A DNA stretch of 64,000 nt from Thermoanaerobaculia bacterium (GTDB lineage Bacteria; Acidobacteriota; Thermoanaerobaculia; Gp7-AA8), in NCBI GenBank assembly GCA_041671505.1, contig JBAZBK010000010.1, positions 46,838-110,837 of the forward strand, read 5' to 3'. Within the stretch, counting starts at the first letter, position 1, and every line of letters starts with the position of its first letter. The notes beneath the pieces were generated by a model. The model worked only from the letters and a program-made list of their open reading frames with translations. It searched no databases and had not been told where the DNA came from. A program made the position numbers and the translations under genes. Below, piece after piece: positions 8,024-62,513 of the stretch.

Positions 8024-9361
8024 GTGACGCTCTTCGACGACTGGCCACCGCGACAGGCAGGCGCACCGGGGGCGCAATCTCCGCTCCCCGAGAGGATGCG
8101 CCCCCGCACGCTCGACGACCTCGTCGGGCTCGGCGAGCTTCTCGCTCCCGGAAAGTTCCTCCGCACGGCCATCGAGCGCGACCGCGTCCCCTCGCTCATC
8201 TTCTGGGGACCTCCCGGCTCGGGAAAGACCACGCTCGCGAAGATCATCGCGTCGACGACCGCCTCCACGTTCGTCACCTTCTCGGCGACCAGCTCGGGAA
8301 TCAAGGAGGTGAAGGCGATCATGGAGGAGTCGCGGCGCGCCCGTGAGTCGCGCGGCGTCCGCACGATCGTCTTCATCGACGAGATCCACCGGTTCAACAA
8401 GGCGCAGCAGGACGCGTTCCTCCCCTACGTCGAGCATGGCGACATCGTTCTGATCGGCGCGACGACGGAGAACCCGTCGTTCGAAGTCAACTCGGCACTC
8501 CTGTCGCGCTGCAAGGTGATCGTCATCCCCGGGCTGGAGCACGACGACATCAGGGCGATCCTCGACCGCGCGCTCGACGACGAGATCGTGAAGTCGCGGC
8601 GGGTCACGCTCTCGGGCGACGCCCTCGACTTCATCGCGTCGATCTCGGGAGGCGACGGGCGCCAGGCGCTCAACAGCCTGCAACTCGTGGTCGAGACGGC
8701 CGACTCCGACGCAGCGCCCCTCTCCCGCGAAGACGTCCGCACGATCCTCCACCGCCGCTCGCTCGCGCACGACAAGTCGGGCGAGTCGCACTACAACCTC
8801 ATCTCGGCGCTTCACAAGTCGATGCGCAACGGCGACGCCGACGCATCGATCTACTGGCTCGTGCGGATGCTCGAGGGAGGCGAAGACCCTCTCTTCGTCG
8901 CACGCCGGATCGTCCGCGCCGCCGTGGAGGACGTCGGCCTCGCCGACCCGGGCGCGCTGCGGCTCGCTCTGGGGGCGAAGGAGACGGTCGAATTCCTCGG
9001 GATGCCCGAAGCGGGGATCGCGCTCGCCGAAGCGGCGGTCTACATCGCGCAGGCGCCGAAGTCGAACGCGATCTACGTCGCCTACGGAGAGGCGAAGCGC
9101 GACGTGCACGAGGGAGACGACCCCGGAGTCCCTCTCCACCTGCGCAACGCGCCGACCTCGCTGATGAAGGACATCGGCTACGGCGACGGTTACAGCTACG
9201 CGCATGATTTCGCCGAGCAGACGGCGCCGATGGACTGCCTTCCCGAGAGCCTCGCGGGGCGCCGCTACTACCGTCCGAAGGAATCGGGGCTCGAGCGGCA
9301 GATTCGCGACCGTCTGGAGGCGCTCCGGGCCGCCCGCGAGGAAATGCGGAAGCGGCGTTAG
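8024..9361 (+). CDS. rarA: Replication-associated recombination protein A (RarA/MgsA AAA+ ATPase)
   Basis: LDDLVGLGELL...LIFWGPPGSGKTTLAKIIA Walker A, the RarA-specific MgsA C-terminal region, and a GTG start 8 nt after the upstream stop. The N-terminal part of ORF 7841..9361 overlaps the previous gene and is not coding. Confidence 0.85.
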   Translation: MTLFDDWPPRQAGAPGAQSPLPERMRPRTLDDLVGLGELLAPGKFLRTAIERDRVPSLIFWGPPGSGKTTLAKIIASTTASTFVTFSATSSGIKEVKAIMEESRRARESRGVRTIVFIDEIHRFNKAQQDAFLPYVEHGDIVLIGATTENPSFEVNSALLSRCKVIVIPGLEHDDIRAILDRALDDEIVKSRRVTLSGDALDFIASISGGDGRQALNSLQLVVETADSDAAPLSREDVRTILHRRSLAHDKSGESHYNLISALHKSMRNGDADASIYWLVRMLEGGEDPLFVARRIVRAAVEDVGLADPGALRLALGAKETVEFLGMPEAGIALAEAAVYIAQAPKSNAIYVAYGEAKRDVHEGDDPGVPLHLRNAPTSLMKDIGYGDGYSYAHDFAEQTAPMDCLPESLAGRRYYRPKESGLERQIRDRLEALRAAREEMRKRR

Positions 9362-12179: not shown

Positions 12180-13622
12180 ATGAGCGCGCGAAAAAGGGCC
12201 CAATCGGGCGCCGATATCGATTGGTATCTCATCTCGATCGACCGGCTGAAACAGCTGATCGCTCTGATTGTCGTCGTGCTCCTCGCCGTGGCCGGTTTCC
12301 TCTACTACCGGAGCCTGCAAACACCGAACCAGAAGGCGCAGAACGCGATCGAGGCTGCGGACGCCTCGCTCAACGAGCTCGCCACGCGCAAGGATTTCTC
12401 CAAGTTCAGAAACGACTTCGACCGCGCAAAGGCGAGGGTCGACCAGGCGAAGAAGCTGCTCGCGAAGGGGAATCCGGAAGAAGCGGAAGCCGCCGCGATC
12501 GAAGCCCAGGCGATCACCCGCACCGCGCTGGCCGGAATCGGCGAGCGTGAGTCCGACGCGCAGTTCCTCACCGTCGAGGGTCAGGTCGAGTTCCAGAAAG
12601 GCGGATCGGGCGACTGGAAGAAAGCCGACCGCAACACGCCCCTCTTCAATGGGGACTGGGTCAAGACCGGCTCGGGAGCGTCGGCGGAGCTCTTCTTCTC
12701 CAACGGCTCGATCTACACGGTCGGCGCGAACGCCCTGCTCGAGGTCTACGCCGCGGTCAACCCGACGACGAACAGGAAGGACAACGCGGTCCAGATGCGC
12801 GTTGGTCGCCTCGAGATCAACACGACCGACGAAGTCGGCACAGTCCGGACCCCCGGCACGCAGGTCATCGTCGACGCGGAATCGACCGCGCAGGTCGACG
12901 TCAACGCCCAGGAGAAGCAGACCCGCGTCGTGGCTCTCAAGGGTGCCACGGCGGTCAGCTCCGCCAAGGGCGGCACGGGAGTTTCTCTCGCCAAGGGCGA
13001 ACAGCTCTCCGCGACGGATCAGGGCGAGCTCGGAGCCAAGAGCAACTACCTGCTGCCTCCCGCCCTGCTGATCCCGAACGACAACCAGGTCTTCCAGGGT
13101 TCGCCGAGCATGACGGTGGAATTCAACTGGGCTCCGAGGCCCGAGTCGCGCGGATATCAGCTCCAGGTCTCGCGCTCGCGCCTATTCTCCGCGCTCGAGA
13201 TCGACGCGAAGCGGGTCGACACGCGGGCCAGAGTCAAGGTGACGTCGGAGGGAAGCTTCTACTGGCGCGTCGCATCGATCGACGAAGCGGGCAAGCCGGG
13301 CCCGCCGTCGCAGTTCCGGCGCTTCCGCGTGACCGGATTCGGAACGAACGCAACGCCGACGGGATCGGGTGACACGACGCCGCCGACGCTCACGATCGAA
13401 AAACCGCAGTCGCTCGGCGGCCCGCTCTACCTGATCAAAGGGAAGGCCGAGGCAGGTGCGACCGTTTTCGTCGACGACCTGGAGATCAGCGTCGATTCCG
13501 ACGGCTCGTTCCAGAAGCTCGTCAGTTTTACGAAGGTCGGGCTCAACACCGTGGTCGTGCGCGCCGTCGATCCGGCGGCAAACCAGTCGTTGCAGCGTGT
13601 GAACATATACGTCGAAGAGTAG
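12180..13622 (+). CDS. FecR-domain membrane-anchored protein (unknown function)
   Basis: Single TM helix (LIALIVVVLLAVAGFLYY) and a FecR-like beta region (GDWVKTGSGASAELFFSNGSIYTVGANALLEV). Ig-like C-terminus. Confidence 0.55.
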   Translation: MSARKRAQSGADIDWYLISIDRLKQLIALIVVVLLAVAGFLYYRSLQTPNQKAQNAIEAADASLNELATRKDFSKFRNDFDRAKARVDQAKKLLAKGNPEEAEAAAIEAQAITRTALAGIGERESDAQFLTVEGQVEFQKGGSGDWKKADRNTPLFNGDWVKTGSGASAELFFSNGSIYTVGANALLEVYAAVNPTTNRKDNAVQMRVGRLEINTTDEVGTVRTPGTQVIVDAESTAQVDVNAQEKQTRVVALKGATAVSSAKGGTGVSLAKGEQLSATDQGELGAKSNYLLPPALLIPNDNQVFQGSPSMTVEFNWAPRPESRGYQLQVSRSRLFSALEIDAKRVDTRARVKVTSEGSFYWRVASIDEAGKPGPPSQFRRFRVTGFGTNATPTGSGDTTPPTLTIEKPQSLGGPLYLIKGKAEAGATVFVDDLEISVDSDGSFQKLVSFTKVGLNTVVVRAVDPAANQSLQRVNIYVEE

Positions 13623-13717
13623 CCCCGGACGGACCGTGTGGTGCGGCGCCGTCCGGACTTTCCGCCACAAATTCTGAATGCGTGGGGCAGCGGCCAGCGC
13701 CGCGTACTCCGCTGTAA

Positions 13718-14839
<1,122 letters not shown>

Positions 14840-14861
14840 CTCCTCGCGCCGCGAACGATAA

Positions 14862-15713
14862 ATGCAGACTGCCGCCGAACGCCGGCCGACCCTCTTCCTG
14901 ATCGTCGTGCTGGCCTCGCTCTTCCTCCTGATGAGCACCAACGCACGGACCAGGAGGATCGAGGATCAGCGCACCTTCCTCGTCCGCGGAGTCGTGCGGC
15001 TCTTCGCTCCGGTCCTCGAGGCGGTCGACTGGGCCTACTCTCGTGTCTCGGACACCTGGAACGGCTACGTCGACATGCGCACCGCCGTGCGTGAGAACGT
15101 CGAGCTCCGCCGGCGGATCGCGGGACTCACCACCGAGAACGTCGGGCTTCGCAACCGGAACGTCGAGATCTCGCGCCTCCGGGCAATCCTCGGCTACTCG
15201 GAGGAGGTCGACCTTCCCGCAACGCTCGCGCGCGTCGTCATGATCGACACCGGCGGCCGGTTCAAGTCGCTCATTCTCGACCGTGGCTCCGACGAGGGGA
15301 TTCGCGTCAACGACCCGGTGCTCTCCGCCGAAGGGCTCGTGGGGCGCGTCGTGCTGACCACGCCGAGCGTCTCGAAGGTGCAGCTCATCATCGACGGCGA
15401 TTCGTCGGTCGGCGTCCACTTCGAGAGGACTCACCGCCAGGGCGTCGTGCGCGGCACCGGAAGCGACGAGCTCGCGATGGCCTTCGTTCCGTTCACTGCC
15501 GACGTCGTGGCGGGCGATCGCGTTTTCACGGCCGGAATCGACGGGACGTATCCGCGCGGGATTCTCGTCGGGAAAGTCACCTCCGTGGAAAAAGGGAAAG
15601 ACCTCTTCAAGACGGTGCGCTGCGCGCCCGCGACCGATTTCTCGAGCCTCGAGGACCTGATCGTGCTCAGCCCGAGACCGATCGACCCGGCGGCGACGGA
15701 GTTCAGGCCGTGA
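14862..15713 (+). CDS. mreC: Rod shape-determining protein MreC
   Basis: N-terminal TM, coiled coil, and C-terminal beta domain (GLVGRVVLTTPSVSKVQLIID). Follows mreB. Confidence 0.8.
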   Translation: MQTAAERRPTLFLIVVLASLFLLMSTNARTRRIEDQRTFLVRGVVRLFAPVLEAVDWAYSRVSDTWNGYVDMRTAVRENVELRRRIAGLTTENVGLRNRNVEISRLRAILGYSEEVDLPATLARVVMIDTGGRFKSLILDRGSDEGIRVNDPVLSAEGLVGRVVLTTPSVSKVQLIIDGDSSVGVHFERTHRQGVVRGTGSDELAMAFVPFTADVVAGDRVFTAGIDGTYPRGILVGKVTSVEKGKDLFKTVRCAPATDFSSLEDLIVLSPRPIDPAATEFRP

Positions 15714-16219
15714 CGATGCTCCGGTTCGCAGCAGGCCTGATCATCGCGGTCGCGGTCCATGCGATGCTCAACAAGGTCGCGCCGGGCTCGCTCGTCTACT
15801 TCAACCCGTACGTCATCCTCGTGACGTACCAGGCGATGCGCAGCGGCAGCCTCGCGCGCGTGATCGCGCTCGGAGCGCTCGCAGGGCTGGTCCAGGATTC
15901 GCTCTCGATCTCCCTGGCCGGCGCAAACGCCTTCGCGCTCACGATCTGCGGCTATGCCGTCGCGTACGTCAACGCGAAGCTCGTGCTGCAGGGGACCGCG
16001 GCGTTCGGCGCCTGCCTCGCCGCCTCGACGTTTGCCGCGGAGCTGATCGTCTGGACGCTGACGAGCGTCCTCGTCGAAACACCGATCCCGTTCGCGATCG
16101 ACACATGGCTGGCGCGCACGCTCGTGACCACGCTCTTCGGACTCCTCCTGCTCCAGTCATTGCGGCTGGTGCTCGGCTCCGACGTCGTGACGCCCGGGCA
16201 GCGACGCAAGAGCTGGTAG
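15710..16219 (+). CDS. mreD: Rod shape-determining protein MreD
   Basis: Small polytopic membrane protein overlapping the mreC stop by 4 nt. Canonical position in the operon. Confidence 0.7.
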   Translation: MTMLRFAAGLIIAVAVHAMLNKVAPGSLVYFNPYVILVTYQAMRSGSLARVIALGALAGLVQDSLSISLAGANAFALTICGYAVAYVNAKLVLQGTAAFGACLAASTFAAELIVWTLTSVLVETPIPFAIDTWLARTLVTTLFGLLLLQSLRLVLGSDVVTPGQRRKSW

Positions 16220-16267
16220 GAACGGAGACGTCCGCTCACGCGTTCAAGAAGGTAGCCCGATCGAGAA

Positions 16268-18202
16268 ATGAAGGTATATCGCGAAGACGAGAAGACGCTG
16301 CAAGGGCGGATCGACGTGCTCTTCTGGGCCGTCGTCGCCGCATTCATCGTCCTCGCCTCGTCATTCTGGTACGTCCAGGTCGTCCAGGCAGAGAAGTACC
16401 GCGACCTCTCCGACGCCAACGCCCTGCGCGACGTGACGGTGCGCGCCCAGCGCGGCCTGATTCTCGACCGGAAGGGGCGGGTGCTCGCGGAGAACCAGCC
16501 CTCGCACACGCTCGTGCTGATGCGCAACGAGCTCTCGCAATCGACGCGCCGCGACGAAACCCACCTTCCCCGCCTCGTCCGCTTCGTCTCCACCGTGCTC
16601 GGGCTGAACGAGGCGGAGGTCACGCGCCGCATCGAGAAGGGACGCGCCACGCCGGTCAACCTTCCCCTGACCATCGCGGAGGACCTGTCGATCCCCCAGG
16701 TCGCATCGATCGAGGCGGGCAAGCTCACCTTCCCCGCACTGTCGGTCGAGAGCACGGCGAGCCGCAATTATCCGAACGCAACGATCGCCGCACACGTTCT
16801 CGGGTACATGGGCGAAGCGAGCGCCGAGGAGCTGAAACGGCGGCCCGAGCTGCGGATGGGCGATCTCGTCGGACGGCGCGGCGTCGAGCTCGTCTATGAC
16901 ACGGAGCTGCGCGGCAAGGACGGCGCGAAGTTCATCGTCGTCGACAGCCACGGCCGGGTCAAAGAGGAGTACGACAAGCTCAGCCGCGAGCCGCAGCGCG
17001 GACAGAACATCTACCTGACCATCGACCTCGACCTCCAGCGCAAGGCGGAACAGTACTTCATGGAGAACGAGATGGTCGGATCGTGCGTCGTGCTCGACCC
17101 GCGCAACGGCGAAGTGCTCGCGCTCGTTTCGAGCCCCGCGTACGACCCTAACATCTACTCGAAGCGCTTCACGAGCACAGTCTGGAAGACGATCCTCTCG
17201 AACCCATTCAGGATCGAGGTCAATCGCGCGATCCAGGGGCTCTACTCTCCCGGCTCGGTGTTCAAGATCGTCATGGGGATGGCGGGGCTCGAGCTCGGAG
17301 TCATCGATGAATCGACGCAGTTCCACTGCGCGGGGAGCGAATCGTTCTACGGGCGCAGGTTCCGATGCTGGAACAAGAACGGCCACGGCTCGGTCAATCT
17401 CGAAGAAGCGATCAAGGTCTCCTGCGACGTCTTCTTCTACAACCTCGGCGCCAAGCTCGGCGTGAACCGCATCGCCGACTACTCGCACCTGCTCACCTTC
17501 GGCGAGCAGACGACGATCGACCTCGAAGGAGAGAAGCCGGGCCTCGTTCCCTCGGAGTCGTGGGCGCGGGACAAACAGAAGCGCAAGTGGTATCCGAGCG
17601 AGACGATCTCCGTCGCGATCGGCCAGGGCCCGCTCCTCGTCACCCCGCTTCAGGTGGCCAACATGATGGCCGCGATCGCCAACGGCGGCTCGGTGTACCA
17701 GCCGCACGTGCTCCACCAGCGCCAGGTGAACGATGCCGCGGGCAAGCCCCAGACCCTGACCGTCGCGCCGCGGCTGCTGCACAAGATCCATCTCGACCCG
17801 CAGGCGCTCTCCGCCGTGCGCACCGGCCTCTGGAGAGTCGTGAACGAGGCGGGAGGCACCGGCGCGAAAGCGCGCGTGGAAGGGATCGACGTGGCGGGCA
17901 AGACGGGAACGGTGCAGGTGGTCGCGCAGGAAGGATGGGTTCGGGCCGACGATCTCCCGTTCAAGTTCCGCGACCACGCATGGTTCGCATCGTATGCGCC
18001 GAAGGAGAACGCCGAGCTCGTCGTCGTGATCTTCGTCGAACATGGCGGTCACGGCGGCTCTGATGCAGCGCCGCTCGCACGCATCCTTTACGAAACTGTG
18101 TTTGCCGACAGGCTGCACGGCGGCGGCGGGCGCATCACCTCGCCACAAGCGAGAGCCACTGCGCCGCAGCCGGTCGGCCCCCCGCCGGGAACTGCGCGAT
18201 GA
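16268..18202 (+). CDS. mrdA: Penicillin-binding protein 2 (peptidoglycan D,D-transpeptidase MrdA)
   Basis: N-terminal TM, PBP dimerisation domain, and transpeptidase motifs (S-x-x-K context, SxN, KTG in ...VAGKTGT...). Confidence 0.85.
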   Translation: MKVYREDEKTLQGRIDVLFWAVVAAFIVLASSFWYVQVVQAEKYRDLSDANALRDVTVRAQRGLILDRKGRVLAENQPSHTLVLMRNELSQSTRRDETHLPRLVRFVSTVLGLNEAEVTRRIEKGRATPVNLPLTIAEDLSIPQVASIEAGKLTFPALSVESTASRNYPNATIAAHVLGYMGEASAEELKRRPELRMGDLVGRRGVELVYDTELRGKDGAKFIVVDSHGRVKEEYDKLSREPQRGQNIYLTIDLDLQRKAEQYFMENEMVGSCVVLDPRNGEVLALVSSPAYDPNIYSKRFTSTVWKTILSNPFRIEVNRAIQGLYSPGSVFKIVMGMAGLELGVIDESTQFHCAGSESFYGRRFRCWNKNGHGSVNLEEAIKVSCDVFFYNLGAKLGVNRIADYSHLLTFGEQTTIDLEGEKPGLVPSESWARDKQKRKWYPSETISVAIGQGPLLVTPLQVANMMAAIANGGSVYQPHVLHQRQVNDAAGKPQTLTVAPRLLHKIHLDPQALSAVRTGLWRVVNEAGGTGAKARVEGIDVAGKTGTVQVVAQEGWVRADDLPFKFRDHAWFASYAPKENAELVVVIFVEHGGHGGSDAAPLARILYETVFADRLHGGGGRITSPQARATAPQPVGPPPGTAR

Positions 18203-19344
18203 GCGAGCTTCGCGACACGTCATTCCAGACGGGGCCATTCTCGCGGCTCGTCAGCTCGCGCACACTCTCGCGGCTCGATCTCAACCTGCTCGGAACGGCG
18301 ATCCTCATCGCTGCCATCGGCAGCGTGCTCGTCTTCAGCGCGACCGCCGAAGGAAAGGATGCGCAGCTCTTCGGGAAGCAGCTCGTCTGGATCGCCGTCG
18401 GCATCGTCGCGATGCTGATCTTCACCTTCATCGACTACCGGTTGCTTCTCGACATCGCCCTGCCGCTCTGGATCGTCGGCATCCTGCTGCTTGGGTGGCT
18501 CCTCGTCTGGGGACAGGAAACGGCGAAGGTGAAGTCGTGGATTCACCTTGGCGCATTCCAGTTCCAACCCTCGGAGTTCGTGAAGATCTTCACCGTGTTA
18601 CTCGTGGCAAAACACTTCGACAGTCACAGCGAGCCGTATCTCACCTTGCGCTCGATGCTGACGCTCGGCGGCATCGTCGGGCTCCCCGTCGTGATGATCG
18701 TGGTCCAGCCCGACTTCGGCACCGCGGCCACCTTCGTGCCGGTCGCCTTCGCGGCCGTCTTCCTCGGCGGCATCAGGCCGCGCTTCTGGATCATCGGCAC
18801 TGTCATCGCGCTGCTCGCGGCACCGGTCATCTGGTTCGGCTTTCTCCAGCCTTACCAGAAGGAGCGGGTCATGATCTTTGTCGATCCGCAGCGCGACCCT
18901 CACGGATCGGGCTACCAGGTCATGCAGTCGAAGATCGCCATCGGTTCGGGGGGGATCACCGGCAAGGGGTTCCGCGAGGGAACGCAGGCGAAGCTGGAAT
19001 ACCTCCCCGCGCGACACACCGACTTCATTTTCGCCGTGCTCGGCGAAGAGTGGGGCTTCGTCGGCGTGCTCGTGATGCTCACGCTCTATCTCTTCTTCAT
19101 CACGAGCGCGCTGCGCATCGCGAAGTCGGCGCGCGACCGCGCGGGAACCTTTCTCGCCGTCTGTCTGACTTCGTTCTTCATCTTCCACATCCTGATCAAC
19201 GTCGGGATGCAGATTGGCCTGCTGCCGACGACCGGCATTCCGCTCCCGCTCGTCTCGTACGGCGGCTCGTCGATGCTGATGTTCTTCATCGCAACCGGGC
19301 TGATCCTCAACGTCGACTACAGAAAGTTCGTCAACGTCGGGTGA
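18199..19344 (+). CDS. mrdB: Peptidoglycan glycosyltransferase RodA (SEDS family)
   Basis: FtsW/RodA/SpoVE 10-TM protein. Overlaps the mrdA stop. Confidence 0.85.
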   Translation: MSELRDTSFQTGPFSRLVSSRTLSRLDLNLLGTAILIAAIGSVLVFSATAEGKDAQLFGKQLVWIAVGIVAMLIFTFIDYRLLLDIALPLWIVGILLLGWLLVWGQETAKVKSWIHLGAFQFQPSEFVKIFTVLLVAKHFDSHSEPYLTLRSMLTLGGIVGLPVVMIVVQPDFGTAATFVPVAFAAVFLGGIRPRFWIIGTVIALLAAPVIWFGFLQPYQKERVMIFVDPQRDPHGSGYQVMQSKIAIGSGGITGKGFREGTQAKLEYLPARHTDFIFAVLGEEWGFVGVLVMLTLYLFFITSALRIAKSARDRAGTFLAVCLTSFFIFHILINVGMQIGLLPTTGIPLPLVSYGGSSMLMFFIATGLILNVDYRKFVNVG

Positions 19345-19383
19345 GCCGGGCGCGTGGGCACTTCAGAAGGGCCAGCACCAGCT

Positions 19384-19545
19384 CTCATTCCGATCCCGCG
19401 AAGCGGGACGCAGCCGCGAGGAGGAATCTGCTGACAGATCACCTGACCGATTCCGCTCCGAAGCTCTACCCTCCGAGCGGAACCCGCCAGATGTGCTTTT
19501 GCAGATTCCTCGCTCTCCCGCTTCGCGGGATCGCTTCGGAATGAC
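19384..19545. mobile_element. MITE-like palindromic element, copy M1 (GTCATYCCGA-type termini)
   Basis: Termini are cattccgatcccgcgaagcggga ... tcccgcttcgcgggatcgcttcggaatgac (about 30-bp imperfect TIR). Internal motifs gaatctgct, ctgaccgattcc and gcagattcctcgc are shared with the copies at 33000, 40981 and 49055. Lies between convergent rodA and ihf. Confidence 0.5.
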
Positions 19546-19611
19546 ATCTGCCCACAACGCCAACGGGCGCACCGAAGTGCGCCCGTCGTCGATCGCGTTT
19601 GATGAGGTGGA

Positions 19612-19890
19612 CTACTCGTCGAGCAGGTTCCGGAGCTCCTTGCCCGGCTTGAAGCGGATCGTGTTTCCCGGCGGGATGCGCACTTCGACTCCCGTCTTCG
19701 GGTTGCGACCGATTCCTTTTTTCCGCTGCTTGACCTGAAACACGCCGAAGCCGCGAAGCTCGATCCGCTGTCCGCGCGCCAGTGCGTTTCGGAGCCCGTC
19801 GATCACCGTATCGACGGCGTGCGCGGCCTTGAAACGCGACACCTCGGGGAGCGTGTCGGCTACTCTGTTGACGATGTCAGCCTTGATCAT
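19612..19890 (-). CDS. HU/IHF-family DNA-binding protein (IHF-beta-like)
   Basis: ...GFGVFQVKQRKKGIGRNPKTGVEVRIPPGNTIRFKPGKEL is the HU/IHF arm signature. 92 aa. Confidence 0.8.
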   Translation of the reverse strand: MIKADIVNRVADTLPEVSRFKAAHAVDTVIDGLRNALARGQRIELRGFGVFQVKQRKKGIGRNPKTGVEVRIPPGNTIRFKPGKELRNLLDE

Positions 19891-19978
19891 TCGACCTCCA
19901 GGGACGACCGATTATAGAATCGCCCGACGGAATGCGTCAACGTTAACTGCTTGATAAAATTGAATTTGACCGGCAACT

Positions 19979-20341
19979 ATGGAACAGCCTCGCATCGATC
20001 TCTGGCTTAAGCACGTCTGCCTCGTCAAACACCGGGCGGAGGCGACGGAGGCGTGCCGCGGCGGCCTCGTCAAAGTCAACGGCCAGCGCGCGAAACCAGC
20101 CTCCGTCGTGCGGCTCGACGACGTCGTGGAGCTGACCGAGCCGCACTACCGGAAGGTCGTCGTCCTCGCCATCCCGTCGAAGCAGGCCTCGAAGGAAGAA
20201 TCGCGCTCGATGTTCCGTGACGAGACACCTGCGCCGGAACCCGCTGCGACGCGCCGCCTTGGGATCGAGCGCGACGACGGCGCGGGCCGCCCGACCAAGC
20301 GCGAGCGTCGCGAGATCGAAAAATGGCGCGGACGCGAATGA
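19979..20341 (+). CDS. S4-domain RNA-binding protein (Hsp15/HslR-like ribosome-associated heat-shock protein)
   Basis: RIDLWLKHVCLVKHRAEATEACRGGLVKVNGQRAKPASVV is S4/Hsp15-like. Confidence 0.7.
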   Translation: MEQPRIDLWLKHVCLVKHRAEATEACRGGLVKVNGQRAKPASVVRLDDVVELTEPHYRKVVVLAIPSKQASKEESRSMFRDETPAPEPAATRRLGIERDDGAGRPTKRERREIEKWRGRE

Positions 20342-20373
20342 CGTCGCGCCAGACATCGCAGCCAGCGCGCGCA

Positions 20374-20643
20374 TGTAGCCAGGGCGTCCCGCCCTGGCCC
20401 CCTGATCCCACAAGCGTCGAATCACCACGCTACGGGGGCAAAGGCCGGAGGCCTTTGCTACAGGGCTGACGCGGTGCTCGATGCCGAAGCTCGAGTTTGC
20501 CTCATGTAGCCAGGGCGTCCCGCCCTGGCCCCCGTTCCCGGGCGAGGCTGGATCACCTCGCAACGGGGGCAAAGGCCGGAGGCCTTTGCTACAGGGACCG
20601 CATCATCCCGCCACGCGTGCAAAGGCCGGAGGCCTTTGCTACA
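20374..20643. repeat. REP/BIME-like cluster: five GTAGC-headed GC-rich hairpins in alternating orientation
   Basis: tgtagccagggcgtcccgccctggcc occurs at 20374-20399 and 20505-20530 (a 30-bp exact repeat). The reverse-orientation unit gcaaaggccggaggcctttgctaca occurs at 20438-20462, 20569-20593 and 20619-20643. Lies between convergent hsp15-like and pheS. Confidence 0.6.
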
Positions 20644-20654
20644 AGGCCGACCGC

Positions 20655-21686
20655 TCAGAACTGGCGTAATACGCGCAGGTCGTTCTCGAAGAGCGTCCGG
20701 ATGTTAGGCATCCCGAACTTGATCATCGCCACGCGGTCGATGCCGAGCCCGAACGCGAAGCCGCTCCATTCGTTCGGATCGATGTCGCAGTTCCGGAGCA
20801 CCTGTGGGTGGATCATCCCGCAGCCGAGAATCTCCATCCATCCCGTCTTCGAGCAGGTGCCGCAGCCCGCGCCGCGACAGAAGGGACACGAGATGTCGAC
20901 CTCCGCCGAAGGCTCGGTGAAAGGAAAGTAACTCGGCCGGAACCTGATCTCCGTATCGGGGCTGAAGACGCGCCGCATGAAGTGCTCGAGCGTCCCGCGG
21001 AGATGTCCGAAGTGGACGCCTCGGTCGACGAAGAAGCCTTCCACCTGGTGGAACATCGGCGAGCGCCGGAGCGTGATCTCGTCGCGCCGGTAGACGCGGC
21101 CGGCGGAGAGAACCTTGAAGGGAGGCTGTCCCTTTTCCATCGTCCTGATCTGGACGTTCGACGTGTGCGTCCGAAGCAGCAGCTCCGGCCCGAGGTAGAA
21201 GGTGTCCTGCGTGTCGCGGGCGGGATGGTCGGGGGTGAAGTTCAGCCCCTCGAAGTTGTACCAGTCGGTCTCGATCTCCGGTCCCGGATCGATCGAATAG
21301 GCCATCTCGCGGAAGATCTGCTCGATCTCGCGGCGGACGAGCGTGATCGGGTGAAGCGAGCCGAACGCCGGCTTCCTCCCGGGGAGCGTGACGTCGATCG
21401 ACGAGCGCGCCTGCTTGCGCGCAGCCTCTTCGACCGCCGACGCTTCGAGCTTCTCGCGAAGGCGTGACTCGAGCGAGTCGCGAAGGAGATTGAGCTGCTC
21501 GCCGACTTCCTTCTTCCTCTCGGCGGGGACCGACTTGAGCTCCGCGAAGAGCGCGGGGACGACGCCCCCCTTGCGGCCGAAGAAGCGCACGCGAAGAGCT
21601 TCGAGGTCGGCGTGGGACGTCGACGCGGCGAGCGCCTCGTCGAACTCGCGTTCGGTGGTGCGGATCGAGTCGAGCATGTCGGTCAA
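20655..21686 (-). CDS. pheS: Phenylalanine--tRNA ligase alpha subunit
   Basis: Class II aaRS motifs and the conserved C-terminus ...FGLGIDRVAMIKFGMPNIRTLFENDLRVLRQF. Confidence 0.9.
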   Translation of the reverse strand: MTDMLDSIRTTEREFDEALAASTSHADLEALRVRFFGRKGGVVPALFAELKSVPAERKKEVGEQLNLLRDSLESRLREKLEASAVEEAARKQARSSIDVTLPGRKPAFGSLHPITLVRREIEQIFREMAYSIDPGPEIETDWYNFEGLNFTPDHPARDTQDTFYLGPELLLRTHTSNVQIRTMEKGQPPFKVLSAGRVYRRDEITLRRSPMFHQVEGFFVDRGVHFGHLRGTLEHFMRRVFSPDTEIRFRPSYFPFTEPSAEVDISCPFCRGAGCGTCSKTGWMEILGCGMIHPQVLRNCDIDPNEWSGFAFGLGIDRVAMIKFGMPNIRTLFENDLRVLRQF

Positions 21687-25309: not shown

Positions 25310-25386
<77 letters not shown>

Positions 25387-25407: not shown

Positions 25408-25484
25408 TGGTAGGCGCTATCGGACTCGAACCGATGACCTCTACCGTGTGAAGGTAGCGCTCTAACCAGCTGAGCTAAGCGCCT
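25408..25484 (-). tRNA. tRNA-Val (anticodon CAC)
   Basis: Near-identical scaffold to the adjacent tRNA. Acceptor stem AGGCGCT/AGCGCCT, anticodon loop TTCACAC, encoded CCA. Confidence 0.85.
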
Positions 25485-25582
25485 GCACTGCTGGAGCCCT
25501 CCGAAACTGAGCCTCCACCCTCGGTATTTCCGAGGGACGAGAAGCATAGGGAAGGCCGCGTGGGGAGTCAATAGGAGGATCG

Positions 25583-25696
25583 AAATGACAAATGAAGAAA
25601 TGACAAATGACAAGAGAGGAAGCGCGACCGCTGTCGGGACCCAGGGCCTGGTGGCGTTTTGTCATTTGTCATTTGTCATTTCTCATTTGTCATTCC
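25583..25696. repeat. Foldback hairpin with heptad-repeat arms (subtype A, AAATGAC/TGTCATT heptads)
   Basis: Left arm gaaatgacaaatgaagaaatgacaaatgacaa. Right arm ttgtcatttgtcatttgtcatttctcatttgtcatt (5 x TGTCATT). A ~45-nt loop contains ccagggcc. Lies between the tRNA-Val genes and lysS. Confidence 0.5.
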
Positions 25697-25772
25697 CCAG
25701 TCCTCCCCACCCCCTGGGCTACAATGCGCGCTTCCGGGGGCCCCGGAAAAATCAGGCAGCGGAGATCGCGAC

Positions 25773-27353
<1,581 letters not shown>

Positions 27354-28581: not shown

Positions 28582-28630
28582 CGAGATTTCGGATCGCAAA
28601 GTCAGCGAGGCTCGCTGGCTCCTGCTCACG

Positions 28631-29752
28631 TCATGGCTGAAGCTCGAGCCACCTGAAACCGAGCGCGCCCTCGTGCAGGAGCACTGTAGCCTCGGGAGCT
28701 TTATCGCCGCCCCATCGCTTGCGTTGCGTCTCGTAGGTCGATCCGGGTATCTCGAAGCGCGACCAGCCGTCGAAGAGTCGGTGGTCGCTCTCGAAGGTGA
28801 CGCCGTACCTCCTCGGTCCGCGGCGCGACTTGGACGTGTACACCGATGCGTCCTTCACCACGACGGTCTCGGGCGGCGAGCTGTCCAAGTGGATGTTGTA
28901 CCCGCGCAGCAGGACGAAGGTGAGCAGCACGCATCCCGGCGCGGTCAGCAGAAGCCACTCCAACGCCCGGCGGTGGCGGGTGGACGGGCTCGAGCGAGGC
29001 CCGACCCAGAACAGAAAGAGGACGAAGGGCAGGACGCCGGCGAACGCGCTCAGATTGAACAGCGACCACGGATCGACCAGCGGCACGGTCGCGAGCAGCA
29101 TCACTCCCAGCGCGCCGATCGCACCCGCGAGGAACAGGCCTAACCCCATCTGTCGTGACTTTGCATACAGCTTGCGACGCTCTGCCGCCTCACCGGGCGC
29201 GGGTCGCAGCTCGCGCAACGCCTTGACCAGGGGCACGAACGCCTCTGCGCTGTCTCCGCGCAGCGACTCCAGGTTCGACACTCGCCAGGTCCGCAGGTGG
29301 AGCTGGAGATAGCCGGATCCGCAATCGACCGCGCTCACTCTCGCGCCTGCGGCTGCCACCTTCGCGAGGCCGTCAAGCAGCTGTTCGCGGAGCGCGTAGT
29401 TCGATCGCAACAATTGCGCAACGGCGCCGTCGTCGTCCTCAACGTAAAACGTGTTGTCGAACGTCACGTCGCCGACGAGGTGCTCCCGCGCCAGTTGCAG
29501 CCCTTTGCCGAGGGAGTCGAACCATCCCTCCGGGCGCAACACGAATGAAACTCTCGCCGGAACCTTGAAACTGATGACTACCTTGGGGACCTGCCCGAGC
29601 TTGTTCTTCTCTTCGGCATAGAAATAGTCCTCTCCCTCGAACACGAACTTCGTCCCCGCCCCTCCCGGCATCTTGAACCGGCGGCCATGCCAGATCACGG
29701 AAATGACAAGGCAGAGCTGGACGCTGAACAGCACCCACAGATACATCGCCAA
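28631..29752 (-). CDS. Hypothetical polytopic membrane protein
   Basis: 373 aa with several hydrophobic helices and no recognisable motif. Its start abuts foldback B. Confidence 0.45.
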   Translation of the reverse strand: MAMYLWVLFSVQLCLVISVIWHGRRFKMPGGAGTKFVFEGEDYFYAEEKNKLGQVPKVVISFKVPARVSFVLRPEGWFDSLGKGLQLAREHLVGDVTFDNTFYVEDDDGAVAQLLRSNYALREQLLDGLAKVAAAGARVSAVDCGSGYLQLHLRTWRVSNLESLRGDSAEAFVPLVKALRELRPAPGEAAERRKLYAKSRQMGLGLFLAGAIGALGVMLLATVPLVDPWSLFNLSAFAGVLPFVLFLFWVGPRSSPSTRHRRALEWLLLTAPGCVLLTFVLLRGYNIHLDSSPPETVVVKDASVYTSKSRRGPRRYGVTFESDHRLFDGWSRFEIPGSTYETQRKRWGGDKAPEATVLLHEGALGFRWLELQP

Positions 29753-29793
29753 TTTTCTCCCGTTGTGCCGGAAGTATACGGCGAGATCCGGAC

Positions 29794-29931
29794 GGATTTC
29801 GGATTTCGGATTTGAAAGGCAGCCCGGGTACCTTACTGGTGTGGGCGGAGAAAGCTCATCCGAAACTCAGAGATCGCGAAGCTGGCGAAGCAAATCCGAA
29901 TTCCGAATTCCGAATTCCGAAATCCGAAATC
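29794..29931. repeat. Foldback hairpin with heptad-repeat arms (subtype B, GGATTTC/GAAATCC heptads)
   Basis: Left arm ggatttcggatttcggatttg. Right arm caaatccgaattccgaattccgaattccgaaatccgaaatc. Loop about 80 nt. Confidence 0.5.
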
Positions 29932-29934
29932 ACC

Positions 29935-30400
29935 TCAAGCGACCGCTCCCCCGTGCTCGACCGCACACGTCATCACGATCGCGGCTTCGCCGTCGGGGTA
30001 GTAACGCGGGCGCCGGTAGCTCTCGGCGAAGCCTAACGAGCGGTAGAGGGCGCGCGCGCCTTCGTTCGACTCTCGGACTTCGAGCGAGATCGACGCCACT
30101 CCGTTGAGCCGCGCGAAGGCGAAGCATTCGTCCATGAGCAGCGCGGCGATCCCGCGCCGCCGCATCGACGGGTCGACCGCGATCTTGTTGACGTGCATCT
30201 CGTCGAGGAAGAACATCGAGAAGACGTACGCGGCGAGGCCGCCCGAGGGCGCCTCCACCACAAGGTTGAAGCGCCCGATCGCATCGATCTCGCTGACGAA
30301 GAACTCGCGCCGCCACGGCGCGGGAAACGAAGCCTGCTCGAGCGCGACGACCGCGTCGAGGTCGTCGCGCGTCGCGCCCCGGATCGTCAGTCCCTCAGCC
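29935..30400 (-). CDS. rimI: Ribosomal-protein-alanine N-acetyltransferase RimI (GNAT)
   Basis: GNAT motifs (...NKIAVDPSMRRRGIAALLMDECFAFARLNGVASISLEVRESNEGARALYRSLGF). The start is probably TTG overlapping the tsaB stop. The upstream part of the ORF in the track is out of frame with tsaB. Confidence 0.7.
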
Positions 30401-31514: not shown

Positions 31515-31632
31515 CCTGAAGAACCTGAAGTTAGAACGTAGAACGGTGAATTGAGAACCCAGAAAGGGGGACCGGGCGCCTCCTTCTTTCTGGGTTCTCA
31601 ATTCAACATTCTGCGTTCTAACTTCGGCCTTT
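31515..31632. repeat. Foldback hairpin, subtype E copy 1 (xxxxGAA heptads)
   Basis: cctgaagttagaacgtagaacggtgaattgagaacccagaaagg ... ccttctttctgggttctcaattcaacattctgcgttctaacttcgg. Copies also at 41018-41122 and 62415-62513. Confidence 0.55.
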
Positions 31633-38336: not shown

Positions 38337-38590
38337 GCGGGCGGGGCAGGAAATGTGGAATCCGGAATGCGGTCCGCGGAACGAAAACCGAAATGTAGAA
38401 TGTCGAATGTTGAATGGAGAATGTAGAAAGGGGATTCGAAGACTGGGACCGGAGATTGGGAACGCACGCCGATAGCCGTGGACGCTGACTATTTCAACCG
38501 CGCGAGCGCTTCTCCATTCGACATTCTTCATTCGACATTCTTCATTTCGGTTTTCGTTCGCACTCTGCATCCCGCATTCCGCACGCCGCC
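38337..38590. repeat. 254-bp foldback element with xxGAATG heptad arms (subtype C)
   Basis: Left arm ggcggggcaggaaatgtggaatccggaatgcggtccgcggaacgaaaaccgaaatgtagaatgtcgaatgttgaatggagaatgtagaaagggg. The right arm is its imperfect reverse complement (...cttctccattcgacattcttcattcgacattcttcatttcggttttcgttcgcactctgcatcccgcattccgcacgccgcc). It fills almost the whole 336-bp divergent intergenic region. Confidence 0.55.
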
Positions 38591-38634
38591 ACCCCGCCCC
38601 CCCGGCGCTATACTCCTCCCTCACCACGTCCGCC

Positions 38635-40980: not shown

Positions 40981-41170
40981 CATCCCGATCCCGCGAAGCG
41001 GGAGAGGGATCTGCAGCTAATTCAAAGGCTGAAGTTAGAACGTAGAACGATGAATGTTGAACCCAGAAAGGCGGGTACCCGTTTCTGGGTTCAAAATTCA
41101 ACGTTCTACGTTCTAACTTCGGCCTCTTCTCCTCCCGCGTACACCTGTCGGCAATGCCGCCGCCTCTGCG
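40981..41170. mobile_element. Truncated MITE copy (M3) with a subtype-E foldback (41018-41122) inserted inside it
   Basis: catcccgatcccgcgaagcgggagagggatctgc matches the left end of M2 at 33/34 positions. After the inserted hairpin, M2-like sequence resumes (cacctgtcggca...). Confidence 0.5.
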
Positions 41171-42150: not shown

Positions 42151-42486
42151 GTAGCCCCCGACTTCGGTCGGGGGTGGATGGCGACGCGCCAACGACGCGC
42201 CGCGTAGCGCCGCCGGAAATCATGATTCGTCCCTCGCGCACGAGGCGAGCGTCAGCTCGCATAGGCCGCGCCAGCGGCCGAGAGATGCGTAGCCCGGCCC
42301 GTCAGGGCCGGGTTGAGGCGAGAGGAGTTTGCGCGAGCCGCGTAAGCGGCGACAGAACGGCGCGGCGTGTCTTCACACGCGATGCGCATCTGTCGCCGCT
42401 CACGCGGCTCGATGACGCGCTCGCCGTGCGAATCCGGACCCTTACGGGTCCGGCTACCCATCTCTAAGGCGGACCCTGACGGGTCC
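42151..42486. repeat. REP-like hairpin cluster (GTAGCC-headed)
   Basis: gtagcccccgacttcggtcggggg (42151-42174), gtagcccggcccgtcagggccggg (42288-42311), and the reverse-orientation ccggacccttacgggtccggctac (42434-42457). Additional hairpins ggccgcgccagcggcc and ggaccctgacgggtcc. Confidence 0.5.
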
Positions 42487-50486: not shown

Positions 50487-50682
50487 GCGTCGGGCTCATT
50501 CCATGTCGCGCCGCTGAAGCGGCGCCGTTCATCGTTTGCGCCGACGTTTCCCCCGGTCTTCGACCGGGGGCTAAGTTCGGCCGTCGCTACGCGACGCAAG
50601 AACAAGAAGTAGTTGGCGCTGGCTTGTCTAACAACCAACGACCAACAACTAACAACTCACCACCACCCTCGAACAACCAACC

Positions 50683-51039
50683 CTACGCCTTCCGGTGCTC
50701 CGCCCTGACGATCGTCTTGATCCCGCCGCGGACGTAGAAGTCGCCTTCGACGAGCATCCAGCGCGGGTCGGTGGCGGCGACGAGGTCGTCGAGGATGCGG
50801 TTGGTCACCGCCTCGTGGAACGCTCCCTCGTCGCGGAACGACCAGAGGTAGAGCTTGAGCGACTTGAGCTCGACGCACTTCTGGTCGGGGGTGTAGCGGA
50901 TGCGGATCGTCGCGAAGTCGGGCTGGCCGGTCTTCGGGCAGAGGCAGGTGAACTCGGGGGACTCGAACGAGATCTCGTAGTCGCGCCCGGGGCGCGGGTT
51001 GGGAAACGTCTCGATGTCTTTGGAAGGGATCGTCGTCAT
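50683..51039 (-). CDS. queF: NADPH-dependent 7-cyano-7-deazaguanine reductase QueF (type I)
   Basis: ...[21 protein letters not shown]... has the catalytic Cys and the QueF motif. 118 aa. Confidence 0.85.
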
Positions 51040-62414: not shown

Positions 62415-62513
62415 CCGAAGTTAGAAGTTAGAACGTTGAATGTTGAATCCAGAAAGGCCTGAGCGGCTTCTTTTCTGGGTTCAAAACTCAACGTTCTAAC
62501 TTCTAACTTCAGG
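62415..62513. repeat. Foldback hairpin, subtype E copy 3
   Basis: ccgaagttagaagttagaacgttgaatgttgaatccagaaagg cctgagcggcttc ttttctgggttcaaaactcaacgttctaacttctaacttcagg. Confidence 0.55.

Follow-up and report, generated by a model that had tools for sequence, protein, structure and literature searches.

The STRR heptamer repeats of cyanobacteria were reportedly treated by Mazel et al. in 1990 and by Vioque in 1997. They consist of tandem 7-bp units that form hairpins, and their function is unexplained (PMC2670836). Paired inverted tandem hepta- or octanucleotide sites of Geobacter metallireducens, sorted into classes 1-3, have been listed as "predicted global regulator binding sites" (Aklujkar et al. 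2009, PMC2700814), TAACTGA heptamer repeats occur in Beggiatoaceae, cyanobacteria, and Bacteroidetes (MacGregor 2015, PMC4679880), and, in a survey of long simple-sequence repeats of prokaryotes with units of 5-11 nt, the heptanucleotide is, as the survey is summarised elsewhere, the commonest unit, with slippage as the proposed origin (Mrazek et al. 2007, summarised in PMC4679880). The element described here is a 115-bp hairpin-forming repeat of 7-base units, hereafter the foldback, located at the intergenic positions 25582-25696 of a 64-kb stretch of Thermoanaerobaculia DNA (the window, that is, the whole 64,000 nt analysed), between two tRNA-Val genes and lysS. It is probably a lineage-specific copy of a dispersed, STRR-like, AT-rich palindromic heptanucleotide repeat that occupies a permissive and recombination-prone spacer, rather than a dedicated regulator of tRNA-Val or lysS, and any local effect that it exerts is probably incidental. 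By analogy with the described systems, it would belong to a known, functionally unexplained kind of repeat that is new for this phylum; the heptad foldback "superfamily" put forward in the initial annotation holds as regards the 7-bp architecture shared by its subtypes, whereas the class itself was already known from the STRR repeats and the G. metallireducens sites.

Like the STRR repeats, the foldbacks of the window are made of tandem 7-bp units, are intergenic and dispersed, and are often capable of forming hairpins; conversely, STRR repeats are hosted by heterocystous cyanobacteria rather than by a 66% G+C member of the Thermoanaerobaculia, and here the prevailing form is a foldback with a G+C-rich centre, and turnover between close relatives is documented. 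As for the unit itself, the STRR2 consensus, TT(G/T)GTCA, would include TTTGTCA, and the Nostoc recO repeat GAC(C/T)AAT is one base away from GACAAAT, the complement register of TTTGTCA. The Geobacter sites share with the foldbacks the 3-5 tandem units of 7-9 nt per strand, the variable spacing of the pairs, the coexistence of several classes per genome, the species specificity, the mostly intergenic position, and the vicinity to insertion sites of other DNA, but their unit sequences differ, the binding of IHF/HU is a hypothesis there, and turnover at orthologous sites is not analysed. TAACTGA repeats are likewise intergenic heptamer arrays, patchy across phyla and of unexplained function; however, they have a different unit and are nearly all direct repeats lying just upstream of start codons, with 1 of 170 sets inverted. 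Inverted pairing is also not addressed in the Mrazek et al. survey as far as its summary goes, unlike in the foldbacks here.

REP, BIME, and REPIN sequences resemble the foldbacks in being abundant intergenic palindromes without target-site duplications that occur in all contexts, vary among strains, and are sometimes nested or duplicated. In contrast, REPs are short and G+C-rich, lack tandem units, carry a conserved 5' tetranucleotide (e.g., GTAG), and are associated with a RAYT (Y1) transposase, so that membership in the REP/REPIN group was rejected for heptad arrays with arms of 28-31% G+C and no conserved 5' tetranucleotide. Membership in the MITE group was rejected as well, for the inverted arms are present but no direct duplication flanks the seven aligned B-type copies (see below) or the foldback at 25582-25696. 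An integron attC site was considered on account of the gene-sized insertions that adjoin foldbacks, but no cassette array or integrase was seen in the window, where the attC boxes (RYYYAAC ... GTTRRRY) were checked by eye only.

The foldback is composed of three parts:

25582-25613, left arm: GAAATGAC AAATGAAG AAATGAC AAATGAC AA, about 4.3 units, one of which has 8 nt (AAATGAAG); 28% G+C
25614-25657, centre: 73% G+C; 25614-25629 and 25650-25657 continue the stem imperfectly, and the spacer of about 20 nt (25630-25649) holds a small internal hairpin
25658-25696, right arm: TTTGTCA TTTGTCA TTTGTCA TTTCTCA TTTGTCA TT, 5.3 units with one TTTCTCA variant; 31% G+C

Tandem Repeats Finder reports AAATGAC x4.3 at 25583-25613 and TTTGTCA x5.3 at 25658-25694, with 93% matches, and the G+C content of the arms contrasts with the 66% of the whole window. 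The two arms are inverted copies of each other: an exact 16-nt pair (25598-25613 and 25659-25674) is separated by 45 nt, and a longer pair of 34-nt arms, 82% complementary (25596-25629 and 25650-25683), leaves only 20 nt in between. Overall, the arms pair as a perfect 29-pair match except for one bulge and one extra unit, and even the deviant units, AATGAAGA in the left arm and TCTCATT in the right one, occupy mirror positions of the stem. The two-unit pattern TGTCATTTGTCATT, with up to 2 mismatches, matches six times in the window, always at this locus, against 0.01 matches expected from shuffled sequences. The predicted RNA fold has an energy of -75.6 kcal/mol (z = -9.2; 0 of 200 shuffles equal it) and the DNA fold one of -38.7 kcal/mol (z = -8.3). 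A chance origin of the heptad arrays is excluded, and the inverted TGTCATT-heptad arms first noticed at 25583-25696 are real, as the sequence, Tandem Repeats Finder, the shuffle test, and the fold z-scores agree upon. The 45-nt GC-rich loop ascribed to them corresponds to the distance between the exact 16-nt arms, but its outer parts are imperfect stem and only about 20 nt are unpaired.

The same site was compared in related genomes. LysS and the neighbouring genes are closest to metagenome-assembled genomes of Thermoanaerobaculia (Acidobacteriota), and the gene order thrS, two tRNA-Val genes, lysS, ftsX-like is kept in the closest relatives (LysS at least 80%). The genes and predicted promoter elements that frame the foldback in the window are:

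25310-25386, minus strand: tRNA-Val (anticodon GAC)
25408-25484, minus strand: tRNA-Val (anticodon CAC)
25543-25571, minus strand: predicted sigma-70-type promoter of the tRNA-Val pair, near-consensus (TTGACT, 17 nt, TATGCT)
25720-25725, plus strand: predicted lysS -10 box, TACAAT, within the conserved block GCTACAATGCGC
25773-27353, plus strand: lysS, class II lysyl-tRNA synthetase, start codon GTG at 25773

L081 and L082, from two independent metagenomes, share 92-93% identity with the window on either flank. Their BLAST homology stops at window position 25553 and restarts at 25705; alignment shows that both promoter blocks are conserved, while the interval between them is unrelated to that of the window and carries a different heptad foldback (GAAGTGA GAACTTA GAACGTT ...), which is 77-80% identical to three other copies of the window (31527-31626, 41031-41121, and 62416-62510). 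In the remaining relatives, the tRNA-Val/lysS spacer holds the following:

L083 (LysS 88%): an RHH-PIN toxin-antitoxin pair
L084 (LysS 82%): an MFS gene and a one-armed GTCATT array, TTTGTCATTCGTCATTTCGTCATTCGTCATTCGTC (TTTGTCATTCGTCATT...), without a fold (z = +1.0)
L085 (LysS 81%): no comparable repeat
L232 (LysS 80%): a foldback of GAAAGTC/GACTTTC units that begins 10 nt away from the equivalent tRNA -35 element

Both promoter blocks are conserved across the relatives examined, unlike the interval between them. The predicted tRNA-Val promoter, which ends 10 nt from the left arm, is kept in relatives that lack the TGTCATT foldback, and the lysS -10 block, which begins 23 nt past the right arm and 48 nt upstream of the GTG, is kept in L081, L083, and L084. 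The foldback thus fills almost exactly the non-conserved spacer between the two predicted core promoters, and, as far as these predictions go, this divergent spacer would not be transcribed. None of the close relatives examined has the foldback, which is either missing there or replaced, although promoters and genes are kept. It is therefore not a conserved leader: the site recurs, the sequence does not. The TGTCATT subtype occurs once within the window, and uniqueness combined with a position conserved among relatives would have pointed to a cis-regulatory leader according to the initial annotation; yet the closest relatives have not kept it.

The foldback is not alone in the window. A period-7 scan combined with BLAST retrieved seven further heptad foldbacks, to which subtype letters from A to D were assigned by heptad unit, and a second set of orthologous loci, L236 (from the population of L081) and L238 (more distant), was compared at their sites:

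25582-25696: subtype D (AAATGAC), the foldback beside lysS
29790-29936: subtype C, CGGATTT / AAATCCG-GAATTCC units (GAA(A/T)TCC), T-rich arm first; the L081 orthologue has a different, longer centre
31525-31626: subtype B, GAAGTTA/GAACGTA units; orthologues kept in L081 and L238
38350-38595: subtype A, GAATGTN units in long nested arms; orthologue kept in L238, B-type in L236
41031-41125: subtype B; orthologous site without foldback in L236 and with a one-armed CGGATTT array in L238
57225-57341 and 57415-57531: two subtype A foldbacks inside a 190-bp tandem duplication, 98% identical
62415-62510: subtype B

Eight foldbacks in 64 kb correspond to about 12 per 100 kb, or about 1 per 8 kb, whereas the other Acidobacteriota lysS loci, 1.38 Mb in total, have 0.8 per 100 kb. 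Heptad foldbacks, though unrelated ones, thus exist in those loci too, as well as in one Geobacter locus. All eight are intergenic (P ~5e-6, taken as 7 independent sites), in spacers that are divergent (3), co-directional (3), or convergent (1), and, because spacers of every gene orientation are involved, the foldbacks are not tied to one transcriptional context. The A and B copies tested fold at z values from -11 to -14, the C copy at only -3.1, and in 7 of the 8 copies an A-rich arm is followed by a G+C-rich centre and a T-rich arm.

The units themselves (AAATGAC, GAATGTC, GAAnGTn, and GAA(A/T)TCC) are close variants. Moreover, D and A foldbacks begin with CGAAATG and most B copies with CGAAGT, the B-type is clearly a family by sequence, with sharp ends (GAAGTTAG...CTAACTTC), and single arrays on other contigs combine xAATGAC with GAATGTC units. 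In this clade, the subtypes of the window therefore share sequence kinship and not architecture alone. Grouping the foldback with the other heptad foldbacks of the window was correct, considering that seven more were found and that subtypes substitute for one another at orthologous sites, as fits a single class; describing the group as defined by architecture rather than by sequence captures the shared 7-bp foldback design but is overstated, since the units are near variants that are mixed in single arrays elsewhere.

Substitution of one subtype by another is most evident at two sites. At 38350, the A-type is common to the window (GAATGTAGAAAGGGGATTCGAAG) and L238 (GAATGTAGAAATGGGATTCGGAG), while L236 carries a B-type whose arms are identical to those of the copy at 8868 of L081 and whose centre is different. 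At 41031, the B-type of the window corresponds to the one-armed C-type array of L238 and, in L236, to 344 nt of unrelated G+C-rich palindromes (8548-8891) that are REP-like in form (e.g., CCCCGCGCGTAGGCGCGGGG and CCCCGCGCTTACGCGCGGGG). Conversely, at 31525 and 29790 the foldbacks are kept and the centres differ, the C-type centre at 29790 spanning about 66 nt in the window and, in L081, about 190 nt. B-type orthologues from the window and from L081 show several differences, some of which are compensatory (CCCAGAAAG/CTTTCTGGG versus CCCGGAA/TTCCGGG). Taken together with the tRNA-Val/lysS site, the L081/L236 lineage has a B-type where D-type units (shared by the window and L084) or A-type units (shared by the window and L238) are found otherwise. 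On the basis of these alignments, heptad foldback sequences appear to be copied between sites. Compared with the older literature, the novelty lies in the comparison of orthologous sites, by which, at about 8% divergence, the same intergenic sites are seen with different heptad subtypes, and the presence of one subtype with identical arms at two loci indicates ongoing copying or replacement and not in-place slippage only. Heptad turnover can be measured in the closely related populations that this lineage offers, but one copy alone would not bring the function of heptamer repeats within reach of a test.

The preferred reading can be phrased as a series of steps. The 7-nt units would expand and contract by replication slippage, and the mirror symmetry of the arms would be upheld by intrastrand template switching or arm-to-arm conversion, not by selection on RNA. 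Copies would reach new sites, or overwrite resident foldbacks, by copying, that is, by ectopic conversion between related arrays or through a putative trans-acting enzyme, and effects on the flanking promoters, such as those of AT-rich upstream DNA, spacing, or insulation, would be a by-product. The observations are explained as well by ectopic conversion between related arrays as by transposition. The correction of quasipalindromes by template switching is an established mutational mechanism in Escherichia coli, and it explains equally well the compensatory changes between orthologues. Among the arm mismatches of 70 foldbacks from all fetched loci, 65 are G:T, 57 A:C, and 178 other, without a wobble excess, although the test is crude, as taxa are mixed and shifts of the repeat register can inflate the class of other mismatches; even so, the pattern does not support selection on an RNA helix.

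Several points weigh against this reading, besides the crudeness of that test. The mismatches show a mild per-element skew (P = 0.025). Although the arms of the window copy match almost perfectly, the far relative L084 has a related GTCATT array at the same site; if the two arrays are orthologous, the window copy has been kept intact for long, which could be due to selection and not to conversion. In two lineages (that of the window and that of L232), a foldback is found 10-11 nt upstream of the same tRNA -35 element, and this recurrence could mean a positional benefit and not mere tolerance. Furthermore, neither target-site duplications nor clean empty sites were seen in the loci of the relatives or in the seven aligned B-type copies and the copy at 25582-25696, nor was a mobilising gene found beside the copies of the window, so that the spreading step is putative.

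The same recurrence beside the tRNA -35 element is compatible with protein-binding arrays, in which each arm would provide sites spaced by 7 bp for a nucleoid-associated protein or a global regulator and the opposed arrays would modulate promoters or DNA topology. Every subtype of the window has constant and variable unit parts (xAATGxC, GAAnnTn), as would suit such sites, the pairing signal looks DNA-level rather than RNA-level, 3 of the 8 copies are either directly upstream of promoter-like -10 boxes (25583 and 38350) or in divergent spacers, and the same idea was proposed for the paired heptanucleotide sites of G. metallireducens and the heptamer repeats of Nostoc. Nonetheless, different heptads at the same site in genomes diverged by about 8%, and none in some relatives, are hard to fit with a fixed regulon; some copies occupy convergent spacers or directly follow stop codons, a candidate binding protein was not found, and a 7-bp spacing places successive sites on different faces of the helix. 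Binding arrays are a tentative and unlikely explanation.

Also unlikely is a more ambitious version of the copying scheme, in which subtypes A-D form one actively copying system that homes into, and overwrites, resident foldbacks at a few intergenic hot-spots where gene-sized insertions are collected as well. This idea is based on the related units (xAATGxC / GAAnnTn) and similar ends of the subtypes (CGAAATG in A and D, CGAAGT in most B copies) and on the insertions found beside foldbacks or at the foldback sites of relatives, which include a toxin-antitoxin pair, an MFS transporter, a 373-aa open reading frame (ORF), and an 8.7-kb sugar-metabolism island. If true, it would imply a recombinase or repair pathway that recognises half-sites spaced by 7 bp on hairpin DNA and a structure-defined recombination site with a logic comparable to that of attC or REPIN, and it would help to explain the TT(G/T)GTCA-type unit in distant phyla.

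A transcribed RNA hairpin that acts as a terminator, an insulator, an RNase III site, or a stabilising 3' structure, roles of the kind suggested for REP and STRR hairpins (for the latter, PMC2670836), is distinctly doubtful. The predicted RNA folds of the foldback and its sisters are very stable (z from -9 to -14), three sisters, in co-directional spacers, lie 0-70 nt past a stop codon, another two share a convergent spacer, and the succession of A-rich arm, G+C-rich centre, and T-rich arm in 7 of the 8 copies resembles a bidirectional terminator. A terminator-like consensus match, and no more than a consensus match, spans 25629-25656 and is followed by TTTTGTCATT. However, the foldback at 25582-25696 is upstream of both conserved core promoters, so that neither should transcribe it, and no T-run (U-tract in RNA) follows the full stem; on these grounds an intrinsic terminator was rejected. 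G:U pairs are not in excess among the arm mismatches, both arm orders exist (29790 in the window, and in metagenomes), and no Rfam family matches the foldback: a scan of the whole window at gathering thresholds gave no match to it, and a search of 25450-25850 with E values up to 10 returned only the two tRNAs and noise (eukaryotic miRNA and snoRNA models).

A non-autonomous mobile element of the MITE or REPIN sort, whose heptads would be bound by a transposase or recombinase that moves the foldback preferentially into existing foldbacks, is very improbable. A B-type copy with arms identical to those of a copy in the same population does sit where relatives have an A-type, a B-type does replace the D-type at the tRNA-Val/lysS site, and the B-type is a clear family with sharp ends; the recent 190-bp tandem duplication of an A-type copy and a lone Y1 transposase gene in the relative L234 may be added. 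Conversely, target-site duplications and clean empty sites are missing, the segments replaced between relatives take in unrelated flanking DNA, the centres differ between copies with identical arms, and ectopic conversion explains the same data. Pfam searches on ten ORFs flanking foldbacks of the window returned housekeeping functions or no match, and no transposase adjoins any window copy. The Y1 gene (PF01797, 192 aa) is solitary, at 14309-14887 of L234, a Thermoanaerobaculia relative with LysS at 73%, and no heptad arrays were detected beside it. Lastly, a conserved cis-regulatory leader or operator specific to lysS or to the tRNA-Val operon, to which the position between two promoters and the uniqueness within the 64-kb window might point, is extremely improbable, and a lysS leader RNA (riboswitch, T-box, or similar) was rejected, in view of its replacement or absence in L081-L085 and L232 with promoters and genes kept, its location upstream of the conserved lysS -10 box and not in the 5' untranslated region, and the lack of an Rfam match.

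Outside this lineage, (TGTCATT)n foldbacks are common in metagenomes, where at least 120 stretches contain (TGTCATT)3. On contigs with at least 55% G+C, 19 of 36 (TGTCATT)3 arrays among the matches listed have an inverted partner within 250 nt, and these 19 foldbacks, again among the matches listed, comprise 8 with the A-rich arm first, as at 25582-25696, and 11 with the T-rich arm first. The arrays are often mixed with GGTCATT and CGTCATT units. Among about 150 (TGTCATT)3 loci, no homologues of the centre or flanks of the foldback were found, and the heptads alone match. STRR-like heptanucleotide hairpins are therefore not confined to cyanobacteria: at least one Thermoanaerobaculia lineage carries them at high density, and they are a common feature of environmental contigs.

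On viral contigs, the (TGTCATT)3 matches are mostly microsatellites in giant-virus or low-G+C DNA, and neither an exact B-type 19-mer nor a D-type foldback pattern was found. Seven predicted viral contigs of about 60% G+C carry (GAATGTC)n arrays, eight stretches in all, some with GAATGAC units. Two predicted viral loci of about 61% G+C, L241 (8190-8340) and L246 (minus strand, ~1050-1250), hold foldbacks that mix GAATGAC, GAATGGC, and GAATGTC in one array, which shows that D-like and A-like units interconvert and that such repeats are present in phage or prophage DNA as well.

Returning to the genes around the foldback, its description as lying in the divergent spacer between the tRNA-Val genes, on the minus strand, and lysS, on the plus strand, is accurate. 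An ORF that starts from the TTG at 25659 passes through the right arm, and its dismissal as an artefact in the initial annotation was sound: translation from the GTG at 25773 yields 526 aa, the same length as a 95%-identical homologue called from the equivalent GTG, and the true lysS start is this GTG because product length and start codon of the homologue agree. For annotation, this means that the foldback explains a spurious N-terminal extension of LysS and that the hairpin should not be read as a regulatory leader. The heptads were also considered as mimics of a -35 element and rejected by inspection, as a distance of 27 nt between the TTGTCA hexamers of the right arm and the lysS -10 box is too long.

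In two foldback-adjacent promoters, at 38596-38634 and 25697-25725, GC-TA(C/T)A(A/C)T comes after a C-rich tract (CCCCACCCCCTGGGCTACAAT and CCCCGCCCCCCGGCGCTATACT). The tract is kept in the closest relatives whatever foldback lies upstream (L236, 6100-6160; L238, 9930-10000), L083 is without it at the lysS promoter, and it may reflect the promoter style of the lineage.

Gene-sized insertions adjoin the outer edges of heptad arrays. An MFS gene is found in the tRNA-Val/lysS spacer of L084, L085, L232, and L235. The 373-aa ORF (28631-29752), which has no Pfam match, separates the ftsX-like gene from the CGGATTT foldback, and L081 does not have it (window 28595-29898 versus L081 7007-7247). That ftsX-like/foldback junction is filled in L083 by the 8.7-kb sugar-metabolism island (12849-21544), which ends at a 156-nt CATTCCG/CGTTCCG array.

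Other repeats of the window were noted as well. The segment 57212-57581, in a convergent spacer, consists of 1.9 copies of a 190-bp unit with 98% identity, each with a full A-type foldback and about 70 nt of flank, and looks like a recent tandem duplication. A one-armed AACAACC-like array (50627-50682, also with period 21) lies in a convergent spacer, directly after the stop codon of the gene at 50683-51039, and has no inverted partner. Finally, a repeat of about 250 nt at 42244-42496 matches in both orientations, contains an internal 37-nt inverted repeat (42334-42411), and is also present in L081 (10592-10838) and L236 (383-629 and 10167-10421); L081 and L236 have an extra copy between an FHA-domain gene and a SpoIID-domain gene, where the window has none.

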